NCBI GenBank assembly: GCA_030602565.1
Contig: JAUVZL010000001.1
Span: 47,233-111,232, forward strand
From: Candidatus Stahliibacteriota bacterium
Lineage (GTDB): Bacteria; Hydrothermota; Tepidihabitantia; SM23-42
Length of the DNA stretch: 64,000 nucleotides
Direction of reading: 5' to 3'
Positions 3,910 to 63,470 of the stretch are shown one piece after another (the first letter of the stretch is position 1; each line of letters starts with the position of its first letter). A model generated the notes under the pieces. That model worked only from the letters and a program-made list of their open reading frames with translations. It ran no database searches and was not told the DNA's origin. The position numbers and the translations under genes are program-made.

Positions 3910-4815
3910 GTGATTATTGATCCGATTGATCTCAAAATAATACGCCTGCTTGAGTTGCACGGCAGTATCCCACTTCATGAGATCATTAGTAAGTTTCAGA
4001 TCACCAAAGAGGAAGTCCTGCTGCGTGTTAAGAATTTCGAAGACACTGGCTTCATAGAGAACTACGGCATCAAACTGTTCCTGCCAGGCATAATGGGCGG
4101 CAAGTGGTACTGGGGTTGCATCGCTGCGGAAACAACCGCCCGTTTTAAACCAGAACGCTCGATCCCGTGCCTTGAAGAAGTTGTTGAGAATCTAACATTT
4201 CCGCGGGGTGTCTGTCCCAATATCTCACTATTATTTTATACGAAGCAACTGAAGGAAACCTATCGAATCATAAATAAAACACCAGGTATTAAGTATGCCG
4301 AGATCTATAAGATCGACGAATATAATATAGCGGTGCCAAAGATAATGATAAAAGAAGGCTGGCAGCTCATTGCCCGATTGTATGATCAGCTACGTCAGTT
4401 AAACTATGAAAAAATAAATTCAATGGTGAATAACCCTATGTCAGAGAATGATATAAAGCTCTCACGGATGATCTGGTCGAGAAGGAATCGAAAGGGGATT
4501 ATCTCGATTTTCCCGAATTTCAATTGGTCAGCGTTAAAGAACTACGCCCACCTCCACCTGGCGTTAACGACGAAACTGAGGATTAAGGAACTGAGAAGAC
4601 TTGTTAACCGGGTGGGTTTTTCAGGAAACATCACCTCGCGATTCAAAAAGAGATTTATCCAGGTCGAATTCGATATATGGGGTTTTTCAGATATGCAGAA
4701 GATACTCAGTTCTCTTAAGGAAATAGGTGGACTGACTATCGAAGGGTATTCGTTAGCATATAAAAACACAATTAGAAATGCTTGGATTAAAAAATACATC
4801 AAAGAGAGCATATAG
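3910..4815 (+). CDS. hypothetical protein with N-terminal AsnC/Lrp-type winged HTH
   Basis: IDLKIIRLLELHGSIPLHEIISKFQITKEEVLLRVKNFEDTGFIENYG matches the Lrp/AsnC HTH pattern. The remaining ~240 aa are unrecognised. The start is GTG with no in-frame ATG upstream. Confidence 0.55.
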   Translation: MIIDPIDLKIIRLLELHGSIPLHEIISKFQITKEEVLLRVKNFEDTGFIENYGIKLFLPGIMGGKWYWGCIAAETTARFKPERSIPCLEEVVENLTFPRGVCPNISLLFYTKQLKETYRIINKTPGIKYAEIYKIDEYNIAVPKIMIKEGWQLIARLYDQLRQLNYEKINSMVNNPMSENDIKLSRMIWSRRNRKGIISIFPNFNWSALKNYAHLHLALTTKLRIKELRRLVNRVGFSGNITSRFKKRFIQVEFDIWGFSDMQKILSSLKEIGGLTIEGYSLAYKNTIRNAWIKKYIKESI

Positions 4816-5998
4816 TTACATCTCTCCGCTAGTATTCCTGTTCGCCCTGGTTTTAGGCTGTCCAGCTAAGGAAGATGTTACTGAGCAGGTTGTTCGTACT
4901 ACAGTATGTTATGTTGTCAAAAAAGGTGAAGTTCTGGAGGATATTCTCGATCGTGAGCTACCGCATCAATCAACTACTGAGGTGCTGAGTGCTATGAAGA
5001 ACGCCGGGTTTCCGTTCCGTTATTGTATACCTGGCGATTCAGTTACCCTGGCGTTTGAGGATAGTCTTTTCTTAAATCTTACATATAAACAAAGTATCAC
5101 ACGTGAATACTATGTCACAAAGGGAAGTCAACACCTGTGTGTTTCTATGAAACTACCATACATCGATACAGTGGTGTGCATTATCACTGGAGCGATTCAA
5201 TCAACCCTCTATGAAACTCTTTTAGAACAAGGAGAAACACCCAATCTGGTGTTTAGATTTGTGGACATCTTTGCATGGGAAATAGATTTCGTTACTGAAA
5301 CCCAAAAGCATGATTCTTTTTTCGTCCTATTGGAAAAGACCTTCTGTGATTCACGGTTTATTGGATATCAGAACATACTCGCGACGTGTTACAACGGCGA
5401 TATCGGTCTATACTATGGCGTATATTACATGGATGCCACTGGTCATGAGGACTATTACAACTTGAAGGGAGAGTCGCTCCGCAAATCCCTATTGAAATCG
5501 CCTTTAAGATTTTCATATATTAGCTCATATTTCTCAAAACGTAGGTTCCATCCGATTCTAAAGATCTGGCGACCGCACCACGGTTTAGACTACTGTGCAC
5601 CTATTGGTACGCCGATATCCTCAATCGGCGACGGCGTGGTGACTTATAAAGGATGGCGCGGTGGTTATGGCAACCTTGTTGAAATAAGACACAAAAACAA
5701 TTTCAAGACGCGTTACGGTCACCTTTCAAAATTCGCCAAGGGTTTGTACAAAGGGAAAAAAGTCAAGACGGGTGAATTAATAGGCTATGTTGGTTCAACC
5801 GGGCTATCAACCGGGCCACATCTTCATTTCGAGTTGCACAAAAATGGTGTGCCGATAAATCCACTAAAGGTCAAGATCCCTCGAGCACCATCAGTGGGAA
5901 AAAAATATATGACTGATTTCGAACAATATCGTGATTCCCTGTTAAAATATATCGAACAATTATCACAACCTGCTGGAGAAGAAATATCAAAAGATTAA
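4778..5998 (+). CDS. M23 family metallopeptidase (LytM domain), likely lipoprotein
   Basis: The C-terminal HHGLDYCAPIGTPI...GYVGSTGLSTGPHLHFELH carries the M23 HxxxD and HxH motifs. The N-terminal hydrophobic segment ends in LGC (lipobox-like). The start overlaps the previous ORF. Confidence 0.8.
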   Translation: MLGLKNTSKRAYSYISPLVFLFALVLGCPAKEDVTEQVVRTTVCYVVKKGEVLEDILDRELPHQSTTEVLSAMKNAGFPFRYCIPGDSVTLAFEDSLFLNLTYKQSITREYYVTKGSQHLCVSMKLPYIDTVVCIITGAIQSTLYETLLEQGETPNLVFRFVDIFAWEIDFVTETQKHDSFFVLLEKTFCDSRFIGYQNILATCYNGDIGLYYGVYYMDATGHEDYYNLKGESLRKSLLKSPLRFSYISSYFSKRRFHPILKIWRPHHGLDYCAPIGTPISSIGDGVVTYKGWRGGYGNLVEIRHKNNFKTRYGHLSKFAKGLYKGKKVKTGELIGYVGSTGLSTGPHLHFELHKNGVPINPLKVKIPRAPSVGKKYMTDFEQYRDSLLKYIEQLSQPAGEEISKD

Positions 5999-6068: not shown

Positions 6069-6135
6069 GTTTAGGTATTTACCCCATTTAGATAGTAAAC
6101 ATCTAACGGGGTTTAGGCATTTAGGTATTTGATTT
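6069..6135. repeat. CCTAAATACCTAAA-family repeat module (rc orientation) with embedded hairpin
   Basis: gtttaggtattta and gtttaggcatttaggtatttgattt flank the hairpin ccccatttagat...atctaacgggg. The same motif recurs at 12387, 28608 and 36771. Confidence 0.6.
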
Positions 6136-12386: not shown

Positions 12387-12423
12387 CAAATACCTAAACA
12401 CCTAAATTCCTAAATACCTAAAG
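12387..12423. repeat. CCTAAATACCTAAA-family repeat module
   Basis: The sequence reads caaatacctaaacacctaaattcctaaatacctaaag. Confidence 0.6.
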
Positions 12424-12635
12424 ACAAATTCCAAGAAACAAAAAGAAATGGCACTGCCTCTCGAAAAACTCGAGACCTTCGGCTGGAACAGTTTTAATTC
12501 CCTTCATTTTAAATCATTCCATTCGAAGAATCCATTCCAGTGTGAAACACTCATTTCCATACGAAGTATCTCTTCTATGCTTAGCATCATTTCTCTTTGC
12601 CCTTTGTGCTGGAAGGGAGCTGCGCTGGAAATATA

Positions 12636-12756
12636 GAAACGGAGAATTGGAGAAACGGTGAAACGGAGTATAGTGAGTATCAGAGAATATCGTATTCGTA
12701 AATCGTGCATCGTACTCGTAAAAAAACGATAATAACGGAACTAACGGACGAAACGT
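12636..12756. repeat. CGTATTCGTAAATCG-family dispersed repeat (copy 1), with GAAACGG heptamer repeats
   Basis: gaaacggagaattggagaaacggtgaaacggag...gagtatcagagaatatcgtattcgtaaatcgtgcatcgtactcgtaaaaaaacgataataacggaactaacgg is homologous to the copies at 36860, 61190 (rc) and 62262. Confidence 0.65.
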
Positions 12757-13253: not shown

Positions 13254-13439
13254 CTATATTTTTCCTGTATAATAGAATATCTTTTTACAGTCTTCGCATT
13301 TAAAAAGGTTTTCTGGTCTCTGCTTTTTCTTGATCGGTTTCGGATTGACTCTTGTGTTTTGCACAGGATACAGGTAGTTCACATTATTGCTGTTGCAATA
13401 CGGGCACTTCATTTTATCAGTGTGTTTCTTCTCAGACAT
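13254..13439 (-). CDS. small basic zinc-ribbon protein (61 aa, CPYC...CEDC)
   Basis: An AAGGA SD lies 7 nt before the ATG. Two CxxC pairs are present. It is driven by the perfect consensus promoter at 13467-13495. Confidence 0.5.
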   Translation of the reverse strand: MSEKKHTDKMKCPYCNSNNVNYLYPVQNTRVNPKPIKKKQRPENLFKCEDCKKIFYYTGKI

Positions 13440-13466: not shown

Positions 13467-13495
13467 ATTATACTTTCTCTTCTGATCAATGTCAA
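13467..13495 (-). promoter_or_regulatory. perfect consensus sigma70 promoter (TTGACA-17-TATAAT) for the zinc-ribbon gene
   Basis: On the minus strand, TTGACA (rc of 13490-13495) is followed by a 17-nt spacer and TATAAT (rc of 13467-13472). Confidence 0.55.
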
Positions 13496-13503
13496 GGTAT
13501 AAT

Positions 13504-13781
13504 CAGAAACTTGGACACATTGTTTAATAGACATTTTAGGAAACCCTCACCCTTACCCTCTCCCTTTCTAAGGGAGAGGGTGTCATTCTTTTTAGCTATC
13601 CTCTCCTCTCTGAGGAGAGGATAAAAGCCTGCCTTGAACCCTGAAAGTGTCATTCTGAACCATGCCCTGAACTTGTTTCATGGGTTGGTTCAGAATCTCT
13701 TCAGGGCAGGCTCTTTCCAGGGGTGAGGAGTTCATTTAATAAATTCCAAAATCAAGGGAGGAAGATATGTCTAAGTTTCTG
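13504..13781. mobile_element. MITE copy 1 (278 bp): 16-bp TIRs CAGAAACTTGGACACA / rc TATGTCTAAGTTTCTG, with 7-bp TSD GTATAAT/GTATAGT
   Basis: The left TIR is at 13504-13519 and the right TIR at 13766-13781. Flanking 7-mers at 13497-13503 and 13782-13788 match 6 of 7. The interior is packed with GA-rich palindromes (CCCTCTCCCTT..AAGGGAGAGGG, ATCCTCTCCTC..GAGGAGAGGAT) and a long imperfect hairpin, all enclosed by ccctcaccc/ggggtgagg. Confidence 0.65.
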
Positions 13782-13833
13782 GTATAGTACCAGTTCGATA
13801 GTTGTACAATTATGCAACTGTACAATTGTAATA

Positions 13834-14430
13834 TTAGTCTTTATGCTTTTTTCTTATTCTAATTAATGCGGCTTCGAGTTTTATAAATTTCTCTGTCTTA
13901 CGAATGAATTTATTAAGGTCGATTTTATGTTTTCTGGCGAGTTTTCTTACGATAGGCAATGGCTCTGGATCTGCCTTTTTCCAAACTGTTCGGAGTTCTC
14001 TCAAAAAAATATTTGCGGTCACTGGACCAATGCCCTTAAATGATTGTAGAATTGATTCTAATTCCTTTTTATCCTTTGCAATTTCATGAATCTTTGTTAA
14101 TGGCTTTTCACCGTATTTATCCAAGAGGTCTTTGCTTATCTCAAGCAATTTTGTTGCAGTACTGAAATCGTATCTGACATATCCACCTGCATCGAGCACT
14201 TGAACAAGCCTGTCCCATCCAGCCCTAAGGATCTCGCTTGGGCATAGAATACCTGCCTTCTCAAATTCTCGGTATGTTTTTATTGCAATATTCTCGCTAA
14301 TTCTTTTTCCAAAAAGAATGGATGCCAAAAACCATTTGAATGTCTCTTTTTCATTTTTGGTTTTGACGTTTATTCCGAGGTCTGTAGAATAGAGACAACC
14401 ATATTGAGAAATCAATTTTTTTATATCCAT
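13834..14430 (-). CDS. HhH-GPD superfamily DNA glycosylase-like protein (endonuclease III-like fold)
   Basis: FKGIGPVTANIFLRELR resembles the HhH motif (LPGVGxKTA). FLASILFGKRISENIAIKTY resembles the EndoIII helix. The start is set at the first ATG with a GAGGA SD (MDIKKLISQYG). The listed 14478 start is TTG. Confidence 0.5.
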   Translation of the reverse strand: MDIKKLISQYGCLYSTDLGINVKTKNEKETFKWFLASILFGKRISENIAIKTYREFEKAGILCPSEILRAGWDRLVQVLDAGGYVRYDFSTATKLLEISKDLLDKYGEKPLTKIHEIAKDKKELESILQSFKGIGPVTANIFLRELRTVWKKADPEPLPIVRKLARKHKIDLNKFIRKTEKFIKLEAALIRIRKKHKD

Positions 14431-14598
14431 CTTTTTCCTCACATCAATATTTTGTAATAGTTCCCGAAATTTTTTCAATGACTTTAGGAAGTCGGATTTT
14501 TGTGGCTATTTCTCCAAAAACAAAATCTGTGAAAACAATGATGCCGACAATTAGAATGGATTGCATATAATTTATCCTCTATTCATACTAAGTATTGT

Positions 14599-14626
14599 AT
14601 TATAAGAATGTATTTCCCTATGTCAA
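14599..14626 (-). promoter_or_regulatory. perfect consensus sigma70 promoter (TTGACA-16-TATAAT) upstream of the glycosylase-like gene
   Basis: On the minus strand, TTGACA is rc of 14621-14626 and TATAAT is rc of 14599-14604. It lies 4 bp from the TSD of MITE copy 2. Confidence 0.55.
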
Positions 14627-14636
14627 TATCTAAAAC

Positions 14637-14840
14637 CAGAGACTTGGACACAAATTTTAAACTGCAATAGTATAAAATCCTCTCCCCTTGCGGGAGAGGA
14701 CAAAGGTGAGGGGTGTATTAAATTATGAAAAAAATCACCCTCCCCCTTACCCCCTCCCGTTAAGGGAGGGGAAGTATGATGGGTTTGGATTGATGTTGAT
14801 GCAGTTCAAATTTGCTATCAAAGATGTGTCCAAGTTTCTG
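14637..14840. mobile_element. MITE copy 2 (204 bp): TIRs CAGAGACTTGGACACA / rc TGTGTCCAAGTTTCTG with perfect 7-bp TSD CTAAAAC
   Basis: The left TIR is at 14637-14652 and the right TIR at 14825-14840. The TSD is at 14630-14636 and 14841-14847. Internal palindromes include CCTCTCCCcttgcGGGAGAGG and CCCTCCCgttaaGGGAGGG. Confidence 0.7.
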
Positions 14841-14849
14841 CTAAAACAT

Positions 14850-14895
14850 CATATCGATATATGTACAATTGTGCATATGTGCATATATCGATATG
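14850..14895. promoter_or_regulatory. pair of 10-bp perfect palindromes ATATCGATAT (candidate operator) upstream of the DUF3795 gene
   Basis: CATATCGATATATG (14850-14863) and its exact rc CATATATCGATATG (14882-14895) are separated by 18 bp that contain TGTACAATTGT. Confidence 0.4.
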
Positions 14896-14981
14896 GTCGG
14901 TTGAGTGGGTGTGAATGTTCTCTTGATTCTTTTGAGAATTTGTGTATTTTTATTAGGTATTTAACTTCTTAAGGAGGTAAT

Positions 14982-25838: not shown

Positions 25839-25960
25839 GTTAAATAGTTAAATGGTAATTGGTTAAATAAAACTCCGTTCAATAGCATATGTGATATTTA
25901 GTTATTTAACTTTTTAACCATTTCCCATTTAACCATTTATAACCATTCACAATTTAACCA
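25839..25960. promoter_or_regulatory. AT-rich region with phased AACCATT/AATGGTT repeats upstream of tRNA-Ala (putative UP-element/curved DNA or binding-site array)
   Basis: The sequence ttaaccatttcccatttaaccatttataaccattcacaatttaacca has repeats at 25916, 25931, 25941 and 25956 (10-15 bp phasing). Oppositely oriented copies lie at 25850-25866. Confidence 0.3.
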
Positions 25961-28607: not shown

Positions 28608-28657
28608 CCTAAAATATAAATGCCTAAAAATCCAAAATACCTAAATACCTAAACCTA
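28608..28657. repeat. CCTAAATACCTAAA-family repeat module
   Basis: The sequence reads cctaaaatataaatgcctaaaaatccaaaatacctaaatacctaaacc. Confidence 0.55.
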
Positions 28658-36770: not shown

Positions 36771-37050
36771 ATACAAATTCCTAAATACCTAAACCCAGCT
36801 CGTTCATAACGGGCTTGGGTAAAAATCCAAAATACCTAAATACCTAAATGAACCAGATCAACGAAGAAACGGAGAATATCGTATTCGTAAATCGTACTCG
36901 TAAAAAACACGATAATAATTTATCCCGTGGAATGCGACCCGCCCTGCCTGTCCCGTAGCGTCAGCGTACGGGGTGGAGTGTGCACACTATTCCATGGGGA
37001 GCATATTCCATTGGGACGGACTAAACGATACTAACGTATCAAACGGTATT
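36771..37050. repeat. composite intergenic repeat element: CCTAAATACCTAAA modules + CGTATTCGTAAATCG-family unit (copy 2) with ~55-bp internal insertion
   Basis: cctaaatacctaaa occurs twice, then ...gaaacggagaatatcgtattcgtaaatcgtactcgtaaaaaacacgataataatttatcccgtggaatgcga...ccattgggacggactaaacg. It is colinear with 12636-12756 and with the rc of 61190-61375. Confidence 0.65.
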
Positions 37051-62245: not shown

Positions 62246-62261
62246 TTCTACCTCCTTAAAA

Positions 62262-62325
62262 ACGTACTCGTAAATCGTGCACCGTATTCGTAACAAATAC
62301 GATCTACGACATATGAATACGAATT
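62262..62325. repeat. CGTATTCGTAAATCG-family dispersed repeat (copy 4)
   Basis: The sequence reads cgtactcgtaaatcgtgcaccgtattcgtaacaaatacgatctacgacatatgaatacgaatt. Confidence 0.6.
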
Positions 62326-63343: not shown

Positions 63344-63430
63344 AATTGCTTAGTTAAATAATTCAATCATATTTCCACCTTTTATTTCATGCGTTTTAGA
63401 TACTTAATATAGCCATTTATACCTTTGAGC

Positions 63431-63470
63431 AATTTAACCTTTTAACCATATAACCATTCAACCATTATAG
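63431..63470. promoter_or_regulatory. tandem AACCATT repeats upstream of the sucD-like operon (same motif family as 25916-25960)
   Basis: The sequence reads aatttaaccttttaaccatataaccattcaaccattatag. Confidence 0.3.

Follow-up and report, generated by a model that had tools for sequence, protein, structure and literature searches.

The 64,000-nucleotide (nt) stretch of Candidatus Stahliibacteriota contig JAUVZL010000001.1 that was analysed here, called the window below, contains two short elements with terminal inverted repeats, one on each side of a DNA-glycosylase-like gene. An initial annotation made from the letters alone had read them as two copies of a miniature inverted-repeat transposable element (MITE), each inserted next to a promoter. 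The identity of these elements and the rule by which they choose their site are the subject of this work. The features that bear on both questions are the following.

13504–13781 (+), 278 nt: MITE copy 1, main subfamily, with the A end (CAGAAACTTGGACACATTGTTTAATAGACATTTTAGGAAACCCTCACCC) left, the B end right and nested hairpin modules inside
13504–13520 (+): left terminal inverted repeat of copy 1, 0 mismatches to CAGARACTTGGACACA
13765–13781 (−): right terminal inverted repeat of copy 1, two mismatches
13497–13503: left flank of copy 1, GTATAAT, a 6/7 match to the right-hand GTATAGT but part of a different promoter
13782–13788: right duplication of copy 1, GTATAGT, the original target sequence as judged from empty alleles
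14637–14840 (+), 204 nt: MITE copy 2, divergent subfamily
14630–14636: left duplication of copy 2, CTAAAAC
14841–14847: right duplication of copy 2, CTAAAAC, a perfect match to the left one
13467–13496 (−): sigma70 promoter at copy 1, CTTGACA-17-TATAAT, 12/12 to consensus, reading away from copy 1 and driving a zinc-ribbon gene
14599–14627 (−): sigma70 promoter at copy 2, TTGACA-16-TATAAT, 12/12 to consensus, reading away from copy 2 toward a 40-aa open reading frame (ORF) and the glycosylase-like gene

The inverted repeats of both copies are 16–17 nt long and read CAGAAACTTGGACACA[T]; the repeat is also written CTTGGACA and the ends as CAGAAACTTGG. Inverted-repeat and 16-mer searches bear out that they are shared: the pair of copy 1 (13504–13520/13765–13781) is 88% complementary, that of copy 2 (14637–14657/14820–14840) is 86% complementary, and the four occurrences of the 16-mer CAGARACTTGGACACA in the window are all at ends of copies 1 and 2. 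The GA-rich palindromes in both copies are perfect hairpins. Folded as single-stranded DNA against shuffled controls, copy 1 gives z = −9.0 and copy 2 z = −6.9, with 0 of 200 shuffles as good, in agreement with the multi-hairpin folding that had been predicted. The ORFs of the window copies have no protein family match in Pfam/NCBIfam-type searches, and Rfam at a permissive threshold over both copies returned sub-threshold microRNA-like hairpin matches only and no known RNA family. In architecture, copy 1 aligns end to end with L045, L008 and L026 (fetched loci are given L numbers throughout), and the outer ~24 nt at each end of copy 2 are like the two ends of the autonomous insertion sequence (IS; comparison with L121, L126 and L127) described below.

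The perfect sigma70 promoter beside each copy was likewise correctly recognised by the initial annotation. The half-site of the target discussed below is TGTCAAG at copy 1 (plus strand, 13490–13496, within the zinc-ribbon promoter) and GTCAAT at copy 2 (14622–14627). The elements do lie immediately upstream of the −35 hexamer, but the distance of 2–4 bp that had been given needs correction: the TTGACA hexamers stand 8 nt (copy 1) and 10 nt (copy 2) away from the inverted repeats; measured from the outer edge of the duplications, the gaps are 1 and 3 nt.

Family copies, empty sites and autonomous relatives

Species-representative genomes were scanned with the 16-mer; about three-quarters of the hits were random single matches, and the copy counts are lower bounds. 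At least 16 loci are present in one Candidatus Stahlbacteria metagenome-assembled genome (MAG; CSMAG_2146), at least one in a second Stahlbacteria MAG and at least five in three WOR-3 MAGs, several with paired ends 170–760 nt apart, and a more specific metagenome scan yielded 14 further loci. Complete non-coding copies number at least 17, with lengths of 172–602 nt, and one more, cut by a contig end, has 761 nt. Perfect 6–8-bp duplications flank 9 of 21 complete elements, eight non-coding copies among them (w2, L026, L045, L057, L072, L094, L115 and L117), and five more elements have duplications with one mismatch. As for the 7-bp duplications originally assigned to the window copies, the pair of copy 2 is perfect, that of copy 1 is probably not a true one, and the length across the family is 6–8 bp and not a fixed 7.

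Empty alleles, to which the initial annotation had pointed as a check, were found for both window copies among orthologous loci of the glycosylase-like gene, fetched via its close homologues. The copy 2 site is empty in L131 and L132 (~91% identical), which read ATTATAaaaatgtatttccctaTGTCAAtat-CTAAAAC-ATCATA with a single CTAAAAC; this allele equals the window sequence minus the element and one CTAAAAC, and the copy 2 promoter is kept in both. The copy 1 site is empty in L135 and L136, which read TGTCAATAT-GTATAGT-GTCAGTTCGAT, and in L131, which reads TGTCAATAT-ATATAGT-GCCAGTTCGAT. On their right side these copy 1 alleles are homologous to the window from 13782 onward, and on their left side they carry the promoter of methyltransferase genes that are missing from the window. 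Copies in related genomes and metagenomes, duplications and empty sites all agree with the proposed multi-copy MITE family, and the window elements almost certainly belong to it. Neither outcome that the initial annotation had named as refuting it came about, be it a lack of further copies together with 7-mers not duplicated relative to an empty site, or a single local duplication behind the repeat similarity.

The oriented copies have two conserved ends, the ~48-nt A end CAGAAACTTGGACACATTGTTTAATAGACATTTTAGGAAACCCTCACCC and a ~60-nt B end. Inner CCTCACCC and GGGTGAGG segments pair together, with variable smaller hairpin modules between them, and this variable module set accounts for the length range of 172–761 nt. 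The 172-nt MITE core (L042) is enlarged by small hairpin repeats that sit within one another's loops, a ~100-nt tandem unit among them; examples are the interiors of copies at L026 6724–7129, L094 3535–4059 and L104 1121–1881, with further stretches at L004 4675–4940, L045 7030–7082, L054 5113–5252 and L072 43–200. Several of these modules also occur outside MITEs and appear to be separate small dispersed repeats piling into the element. Contigs of CSMAG_2146 (L032, L104, L054, L044, L010, L051) often end within or just past a family copy, and L104 and L054 look like the opposite edges of a single insertion, since AACACAT flanks both. A scan of viral contigs with the 17-nt end gave 10 single unrelated matches, consistent with chance, and no phage link.

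A candidate parent transposase was found in autonomous elements of 1.75–1.9 kb, which have MITE-like ends, a DUF2080 accessory protein and a DDE transposase, and which show the same target register as the MITEs. L121, a 2.4-kb metagenome contig, contains a 1,779-bp element (194–1972) with the ends CAGAAACTTGGACACA and CAGAAACTTGAACAGA and the 6-bp duplication ACTCTA. Its ORFs encode a 61-aa DUF2080 transposase-associated protein (NCBIfam, 1.3e-14) and a transposase of ~420 aa that passes the Pfam DDE_Tnp_1 cut-off (39.9 vs 23). Five more autonomous copies were found (L126, L127, L128, L147 and L149), with ends C[A/T]GA[A/G]ACTTGGACACA; the DUF2080 ORF precedes the transposase in L121, L127, L130, L147 and L149. 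The transposase has about 20 homologues of 44–100% identity, all metagenomic. An alignment of seven sequences shows D113, D199 and E331 to be invariant, with spacings of 86 and 132, together with an invariant Y-2-R-3-E-6-K (Y324, R327, E331, K338). The hallmarks of the IS4 family are D(60-110)D(100-150)E spacing and Y-(2)-R-(3)-E-(6)-K (PMC2266710). Its elements are described as single-ORF without frameshift, with duplications of 7–13 bp, about one helical turn (7–8 bp in ISPepr1), and those of IS701, ISH3 and IS1634 measure 4–6 bp (PMC2266710); the 6–8 bp found here overlap the IS4 family only at ISPepr1 and fall between IS4 proper and IS701/ISH3/IS1634.

A tblastn search of the window with the family transposase gave no match; either the window copies rely on a transposase from outside it, or they have lost their mobility. 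At 317–720 of L121, no ATG, GTG or TTG codon opens the conserved N-terminal part of the transposase, whose frame is −1 with respect to the stop codon of the DUF2080 ORF, and homologues are called with non-ATG starts; a rare start codon may be used, or a frameshift may join the two ORFs. L127 carries its autonomous copy between an S8-L6-L18-S5-L30-L15 ribosomal block and a ribbon-helix-helix (RHH)/PemK toxin-antitoxin pair (1–2400, 4184–5439), with promoter-like CTTGACA on both flanks and no duplication, which suggests either a chimeric contig or a rearrangement associated with the IS.

Insertion register at the −35 hexamer

All family ends from Stahlbacteria and WOR-3 MAGs and metagenomes were collected and de-duplicated by flank, giving 59 unique ends. 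GTCAA, the reverse complement of TTGAC, stands 8–11 nt outside the inverted repeat at 29 of these, whereas 0.3 would be expected from its background of 0.0013 per nt (P about 3e-50). The distance is 9 nt at ten ends, 10 nt at fifteen, 11 nt at three and 8 nt at one, and the opposite orientation never occurs at 8–11 nt among the 59 ends. The register is GTCAA-G-NN-[duplication]: in all copies with perfect duplications, the distance equals 1 (usually G) plus 2 plus the length of the duplication (6 gives 9, 7 gives 10 and 8 gives 11). This constant offset means that the cut on the motif side is fixed while the other cut floats. An element has two ends but as a rule a single strong motif, so the motif lies on one side of most elements, beside the A end 13 times and beside the B end 14 times. 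The autonomous elements of L121, L126, L127, L147 and L149 obey the rule of the MITEs. We hold with high confidence that the register is a true target preference.

Long ORFs hold 72% of the motif occurrences but not one of the 29 sites, so selection is certainly acting, and MITEs are generally intergenic (PMC10969869). Both observations would suit insertion with no target specificity, random or AT-biased, in which copies upstream of promoters survived or were kept as modulators. Selection, however, cannot produce a nucleotide-exact register of 3 plus the duplication length, with TTGAC never reversed; ample promoter-free intergenic DNA and positions farther upstream are left unused; and the autonomous IS follows the same rule. 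We therefore consider purely selective sorting very improbable. The initial annotation had left the choice between an insertion preference for the AT-rich UP-element zone and selection for promoter modulation. A preference is favoured, and its anchor is the −35 hexamer at a fixed register, not the AT-rich zone.

The motif has a fainter partner. On the weaker side, CTTGAC is matched at 4 or more of 6 positions in the exact mirror register at 5 of 12 sites (background 0.037, P = 4.5e-5). Divergent back-to-back promoters were considered as the cause of these mirror half-sites and were rejected, as four of the five (L026, L057, L115, L121) have no −10 behind them; in L094, a −10-like hexamer is present for both half-sites (6/6 and 4/6). 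The reading we favour is a target consensus of the transposase, GTCAAG-NN-(N6-8)-NN-CTTGAC, which coincides with the −35 hexamer. The G after GTCAA is found at 14 of 20 occupied promoter sites versus 27 of 75 unoccupied ones in the same loci (Fisher p = 0.01).

Almost all occupied sites are complete promoters. A −10 hexamer matching at 5 or more of 6 positions, at a spacer of 15–19 nt (16 or 17 in nearly all), follows at 26 of the 29 motif sites, 13 with a perfect TATAAT; the motif stands without a promoter at two sites, L098 and L126. An ORF reads away from the element at 30 of 31 sites, starting 33–204 nt from the −35. A consensus promoter thus abuts almost every copy, and other MITEs, such as Correia elements, carry promoters, which could suggest that the mobile unit is longer and includes an outward promoter at one end. 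This is hardly credible, however, as the target duplication separates the promoter from the inverted repeat, the element ends are identical while spacers and downstream genes are unrelated among copies, and empty alleles retain the promoter without the element; these last two points show that the promoters belong to the host and not to the element. At about half of the copy-adjacent promoters, the start codon follows the first base of the −35 by only 33–46 nt, which puts it on or barely past the predicted transcription start (L008, L045, L072, L074, L090, L097, L113, L115, L121 and L124 are among these short-leader sites), and leaderless mRNAs may be common in this lineage.

We propose that the window elements are likely to belong to a MITE family mobilised by an IS4-type element, with a target anchored on the −35 hexamer through a motif outside the duplication. 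The MITEs would be moved in trans by the 1.75–1.9-kb IS with the same termini, as the common ends and target rule suggest. Integration would proceed by a 6–8-bp staggered cut placed by 5'-GTCAAG-NN-[N6-8]-NN-CTTGAC-3' outside the duplication; a single good half-site would suffice, with the near cut 2 nt beyond GTCAAG and the far cut floating over 6–8 bp. The half-sites would be read directly by a symmetric transposase complex, much as some IS4-family elements read their target arms; the mirror half-sites, the preferred G, the two motif sites without a promoter and the IS4 precedent speak for this, and we think it rather probable that the transposase itself reads the DNA motif. CTTGAC(A) is the −35 hexamer plus the preceding C, and insertions in genes would be selected against, so that surviving copies pile up just upstream of promoters in either orientation. 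The gene and its core promoter (−35 to +1) remain intact, and the DNA above about −46 is displaced by 200–800 bp of hairpin-rich sequence.

Several observations weigh against this model. First, a −10 is present at 90% of occupied sites versus 39 of 66 (59%) non-coding [T/A]GTCAA sites, an excess which means that the promoter complex, and not the hexamer alone, could be recognised. RNA polymerase holoenzyme or sigma bound at promoters could recruit the transposase or its DUF2080 partner, much as the Pol III machinery recruits Ty3 and Ty1, with integration at the upstream border of the bound complex and GTCAAG only marking where sigma region 4 binds; the strict choice of the upstream side, from which the promoter reads away, would fit such tethering, and the bound protein could be the ruler that fixes the motif-proximal cut. 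Tethering does not account well for the mirror partial half-sites without a −10 on the other side of the duplication, for G following GTCAA more often than at unoccupied promoters, or for the motif without promoter at L098 and L126. The IS4-family precedent is direct reading of target arms, and nothing in the two IS proteins suggests contact with sigma or polymerase, although no dedicated test was made. Recruitment through the promoter complex is thus unlikely. We give an even lower probability to the Ty3-like form of the idea, in which promoters occupied by sigma70 holoenzyme are recognised and integration occurs at the upstream edge of the complex. If it were true, the family would be a natural genome-wide reporter of active promoters, and copies that part promoters from their upstream control DNA would systematically generate regulatory change in these lineages.

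Second, turning back to direct reading by an IS4-type transposase, copy 1 itself is off register: its GTCAA-to-repeat distance is 8, where 10 is expected for a 7-bp duplication and the other 28 ends have 9–11. Third, the assignment of the partner has weak points. MITE and IS have only ~17–24 terminal nt in common (~17–20 in the main subfamily), and no duplication flanks five of the six complete autonomous copies, probably through chimeric assembly or recombination across the 1.8-kb repeat. The transposase scores below the NCBIfam cut-offs (transpos_IS4_3, 80 vs 160 bits; IS701, 64 vs 150), and the second ORF is unusual for IS4; these sub-cut-off scores, the extra DUF2080 ORF and the 6–8-bp duplication at the low end of the range set the element apart from the IS4 family as described and argue for an IS4-type element of an undescribed subgroup. 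Finally, mobilisation in trans and direct reading of the DNA are both steps that we infer from sequence.

Separate histories and surroundings of the two window copies

L133, which is 94% identical to the window, has copy 1 at the same place (4661–4938) without copy 2, and L131 has neither copy. The sequence left of copy 1 exists in three states, namely the methyltransferase promoter without the element (L131, L135, L136), the zinc-ribbon promoter (window) and an unrelated sequence (L133); these states mark the A end of copy 1 as a point of past breakage. The left-hand GTATAAT is probably GT plus the ATAAT of a second target site, brought in by rearrangement. In this history, copy 1 would go back to an earlier insertion at the methyltransferase promoter 3' of the glycosylase-like gene, and a later rearrangement at its A end would have swapped that promoter for the one of the zinc-ribbon gene. 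Copy 2 would be an insertion at the promoter of the glycosylase-like operon.

The initial annotation had joined the two copies and the gene between them into a cassette-like unit. Both copies have the same orientation, and their right flanks have a common motif of 22–30 nt, as might be expected of a local duplication or of a composite transposon carrying the glycosylase-like gene. Against this, the copies come from different subfamilies and resemble each other at only about 70% where they can be aligned, each is matched by a duplication and an empty allele of its own, and relatives carry copy 1 alone (L133) or neither (L131). A composite transposon does not fit, as the outer flanks differ (GTATAAT vs CTAAAAC) and there is no single outer duplication. 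The glycosylase-like gene keeps its position in relatives free of the elements, which leaves the cassette unsupported, and a shared origin by duplication or composite transposition is scarcely plausible. On the evidence of their flanks, the two window insertions are independent.

The right flanks are alike beyond the duplications (13795–13816 vs 14854–14875), which had gone unremarked. TCGATAnnTGTACAATTnTGCA, common to both, has two matches in the window, where 0.04 are expected. Two repeats lie in these flanks:

13795–13832 (+): decayed TGTACAAT 8-mer array, 3' of the glycosylase-like gene; host sequence to the right of the copy 1 target
14850–14895 (+): 46-nt palindrome to the right of copy 2, like the copy 1 flank; outside the MITE and lacking in the empty allele

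A tandem array occupies the same place in L131 (4614–4651) and L135 (4619–4632). The palindrome on the copy 2 side may derive from conversion, from an operator common to both flanks or from a further small mobile palindrome. An element longer than its inverted repeats was considered and rejected, since the flank motif is present only at the two window places and at orthologous sites among the fetched loci; it was not found in the flanks of other family copies. The window has further repeats. Tandem 8-mer arrays, mainly AAATACCT, recur between genes at 12388–12422, 28617–28653 and 36830–36849, and other short 8-mer arrays lie at 12635–12668, 25904–25960 and 63413–63466. The reverse complement TTAGGTATTT stands upstream of the genes at 6071 and 14953 and also in the L131 intergenic region, and a dispersed repeat of ~40 nt, CGTATTCGTAAATCGTGCATCGTACTCGTAA, unrelated to the MITE, has three copies (12686–12725, 36868–36907 and 62258–62297).

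The genes next to the copies are as follows.

13254–13439 (−): zinc-ribbon protein gene, 61 aa, weak Pfam zinc-ribbon matches
13834–14478 (−): HhH-GPD-fold (DNA-glycosylase-like) gene between the copies, likely true start ATG 14430, 198 aa

The zinc-ribbon gene starts at 13439, 56 nt downstream of the first base of the −35 hexamer. Exact-sequence look-ups of two proteins of the window returned no match. ATG 14430 of the glycosylase-like gene is preceded by a GAGGA site. Its protein has over 4,000 homologues, among them some that the Joint Genome Institute (JGI) calls endonuclease III, and is 74% identical to a Candidatus Stahlbacteria protein and 69% to a WOR-3 one, which assigns the window to that lineage. 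The HhH-GPD identity given to it at the outset is supported by the predicted fold compared with PDB and finds no sequence-family match: there is no Pfam or NCBIfam hit, sequence-only models are silent, and in a profile-to-PDB search the match to SsOgg is weak (E = 0.15). The AlphaFold model (mean predicted local distance difference test score, pLDDT, 93.2) has as its top 17 PDB folds EndoIII, MagIII, Ogg, Mag2 and related thymine-DNA glycosylases, all at probability 1.00 with template modelling (TM) scores of 0.48–0.59, and most of the remaining top 50 are likewise. At the level of the modelled fold, the glycosylase-like assignment holds, and the gene is a conserved host gene and not part of an element. 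A 40-aa hydrophobic ORF (14444–14566, minus strand) with a good GAGGA ribosome-binding site lies between the copy 2 promoter and the glycosylase-like gene; in the relative L135, a 235-aa gene occupies its position.

ORF 14688–14972 had been dismissed as an artefact lying entirely inside copy 2. It is very likely spurious, as it has no family match and its first part is element sequence missing from the empty allele, but it only starts inside copy 2, and 132 nt extend past it. Both copies leave the promoter from −35 to +1 untouched and replace what lies upstream of about −46 with hairpin-rich DNA; copy 2 pushes an AT-rich stretch, which is upstream in the empty allele, 211 bp away.

Relation to known elements and significance

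MITEs and IS4-type elements are well known, and this element adds a member to a familiar kind; what is unusual is the target rule, by which non-coding and autonomous copies alike land beside the −35. Target-arm specificity outside the duplication is documented for IS4 and for IS4Sa subgroup elements such as ISRm22 (PMC2266710). The elements described here resemble the IS4 family in DDE spacing, the Y-2-R-3-E-6-K signature, 5'-CA termini, a short duplication of variable length and recognition of outside arms; IS231A, of the same family, has the target consensus GGG-N5-CCC. They differ from IS4 members in that the arm motif is the sigma70 −35 hexamer, for which no such case is reported in the literature searched. 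Indeed, our limited search found no bacterial transposon with nucleotide-exact insertion directed by the −35, and nothing on DUF2080 in transposons or on Stahlbacteria transposons.

The non-coding copies are similar to other bacterial MITEs, such as the Correia elements of Neisseria and MITEAba12, in being short, hairpin-forming, intergenic and multi-copy, with inverted repeats, target duplications and ends in common with an autonomous IS. Correia elements, however, duplicate TA and carry their own promoters, whereas this family lands beside a host promoter; its very variable length (172–761 nt, through nested hairpin repeats) also sets it apart from other MITEs. IS231-derived mobile insertion cassettes are comparable to MITEs. 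IS1397 and ISKpn1 target repetitive extragenic palindromic (REP) sequences and bacterial interspersed mosaic element (BIME) palindromes, and IS1111/IS110 elements target REP or integron sites. These share with our family the use of a recurrent short intergenic host motif as a harmless landing site, but they insert inside the motif, which here stays intact 2 nt beside the duplication, and their transposase families and mechanisms differ. In eukaryotes, Ty3 and Ty1 of yeast and TRE5-A and DGLT-A of Dictyostelium integrate upstream of RNA polymerase III genes (PMC6101501). They too land at a short, constant distance from a promoter on its upstream side, where a crowded genome can take an insertion safely and coding sequence is spared. 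Those elements are retrotransposons tethered by transcription-factor proteins, whereas a DNA transposon is at work here, for which direct reading of a DNA motif is favoured, and the likeness is functional only.

Each insertion parts a promoter from the DNA above about −46. The copies are also hot spots of rearrangement, as at the left flank of copy 1, and they cause contig breaks in short-read assemblies. If a transposition assay confirms the target rule, the family would provide a compact DNA-transposon case of "safe-haven" targeting in a gene-dense bacterial genome and a simple system for how a DDE transposase reads its target arms. It would also offer a practical marker of promoters in candidate phyla without genetics, such as Stahlbacteria and WOR-3.

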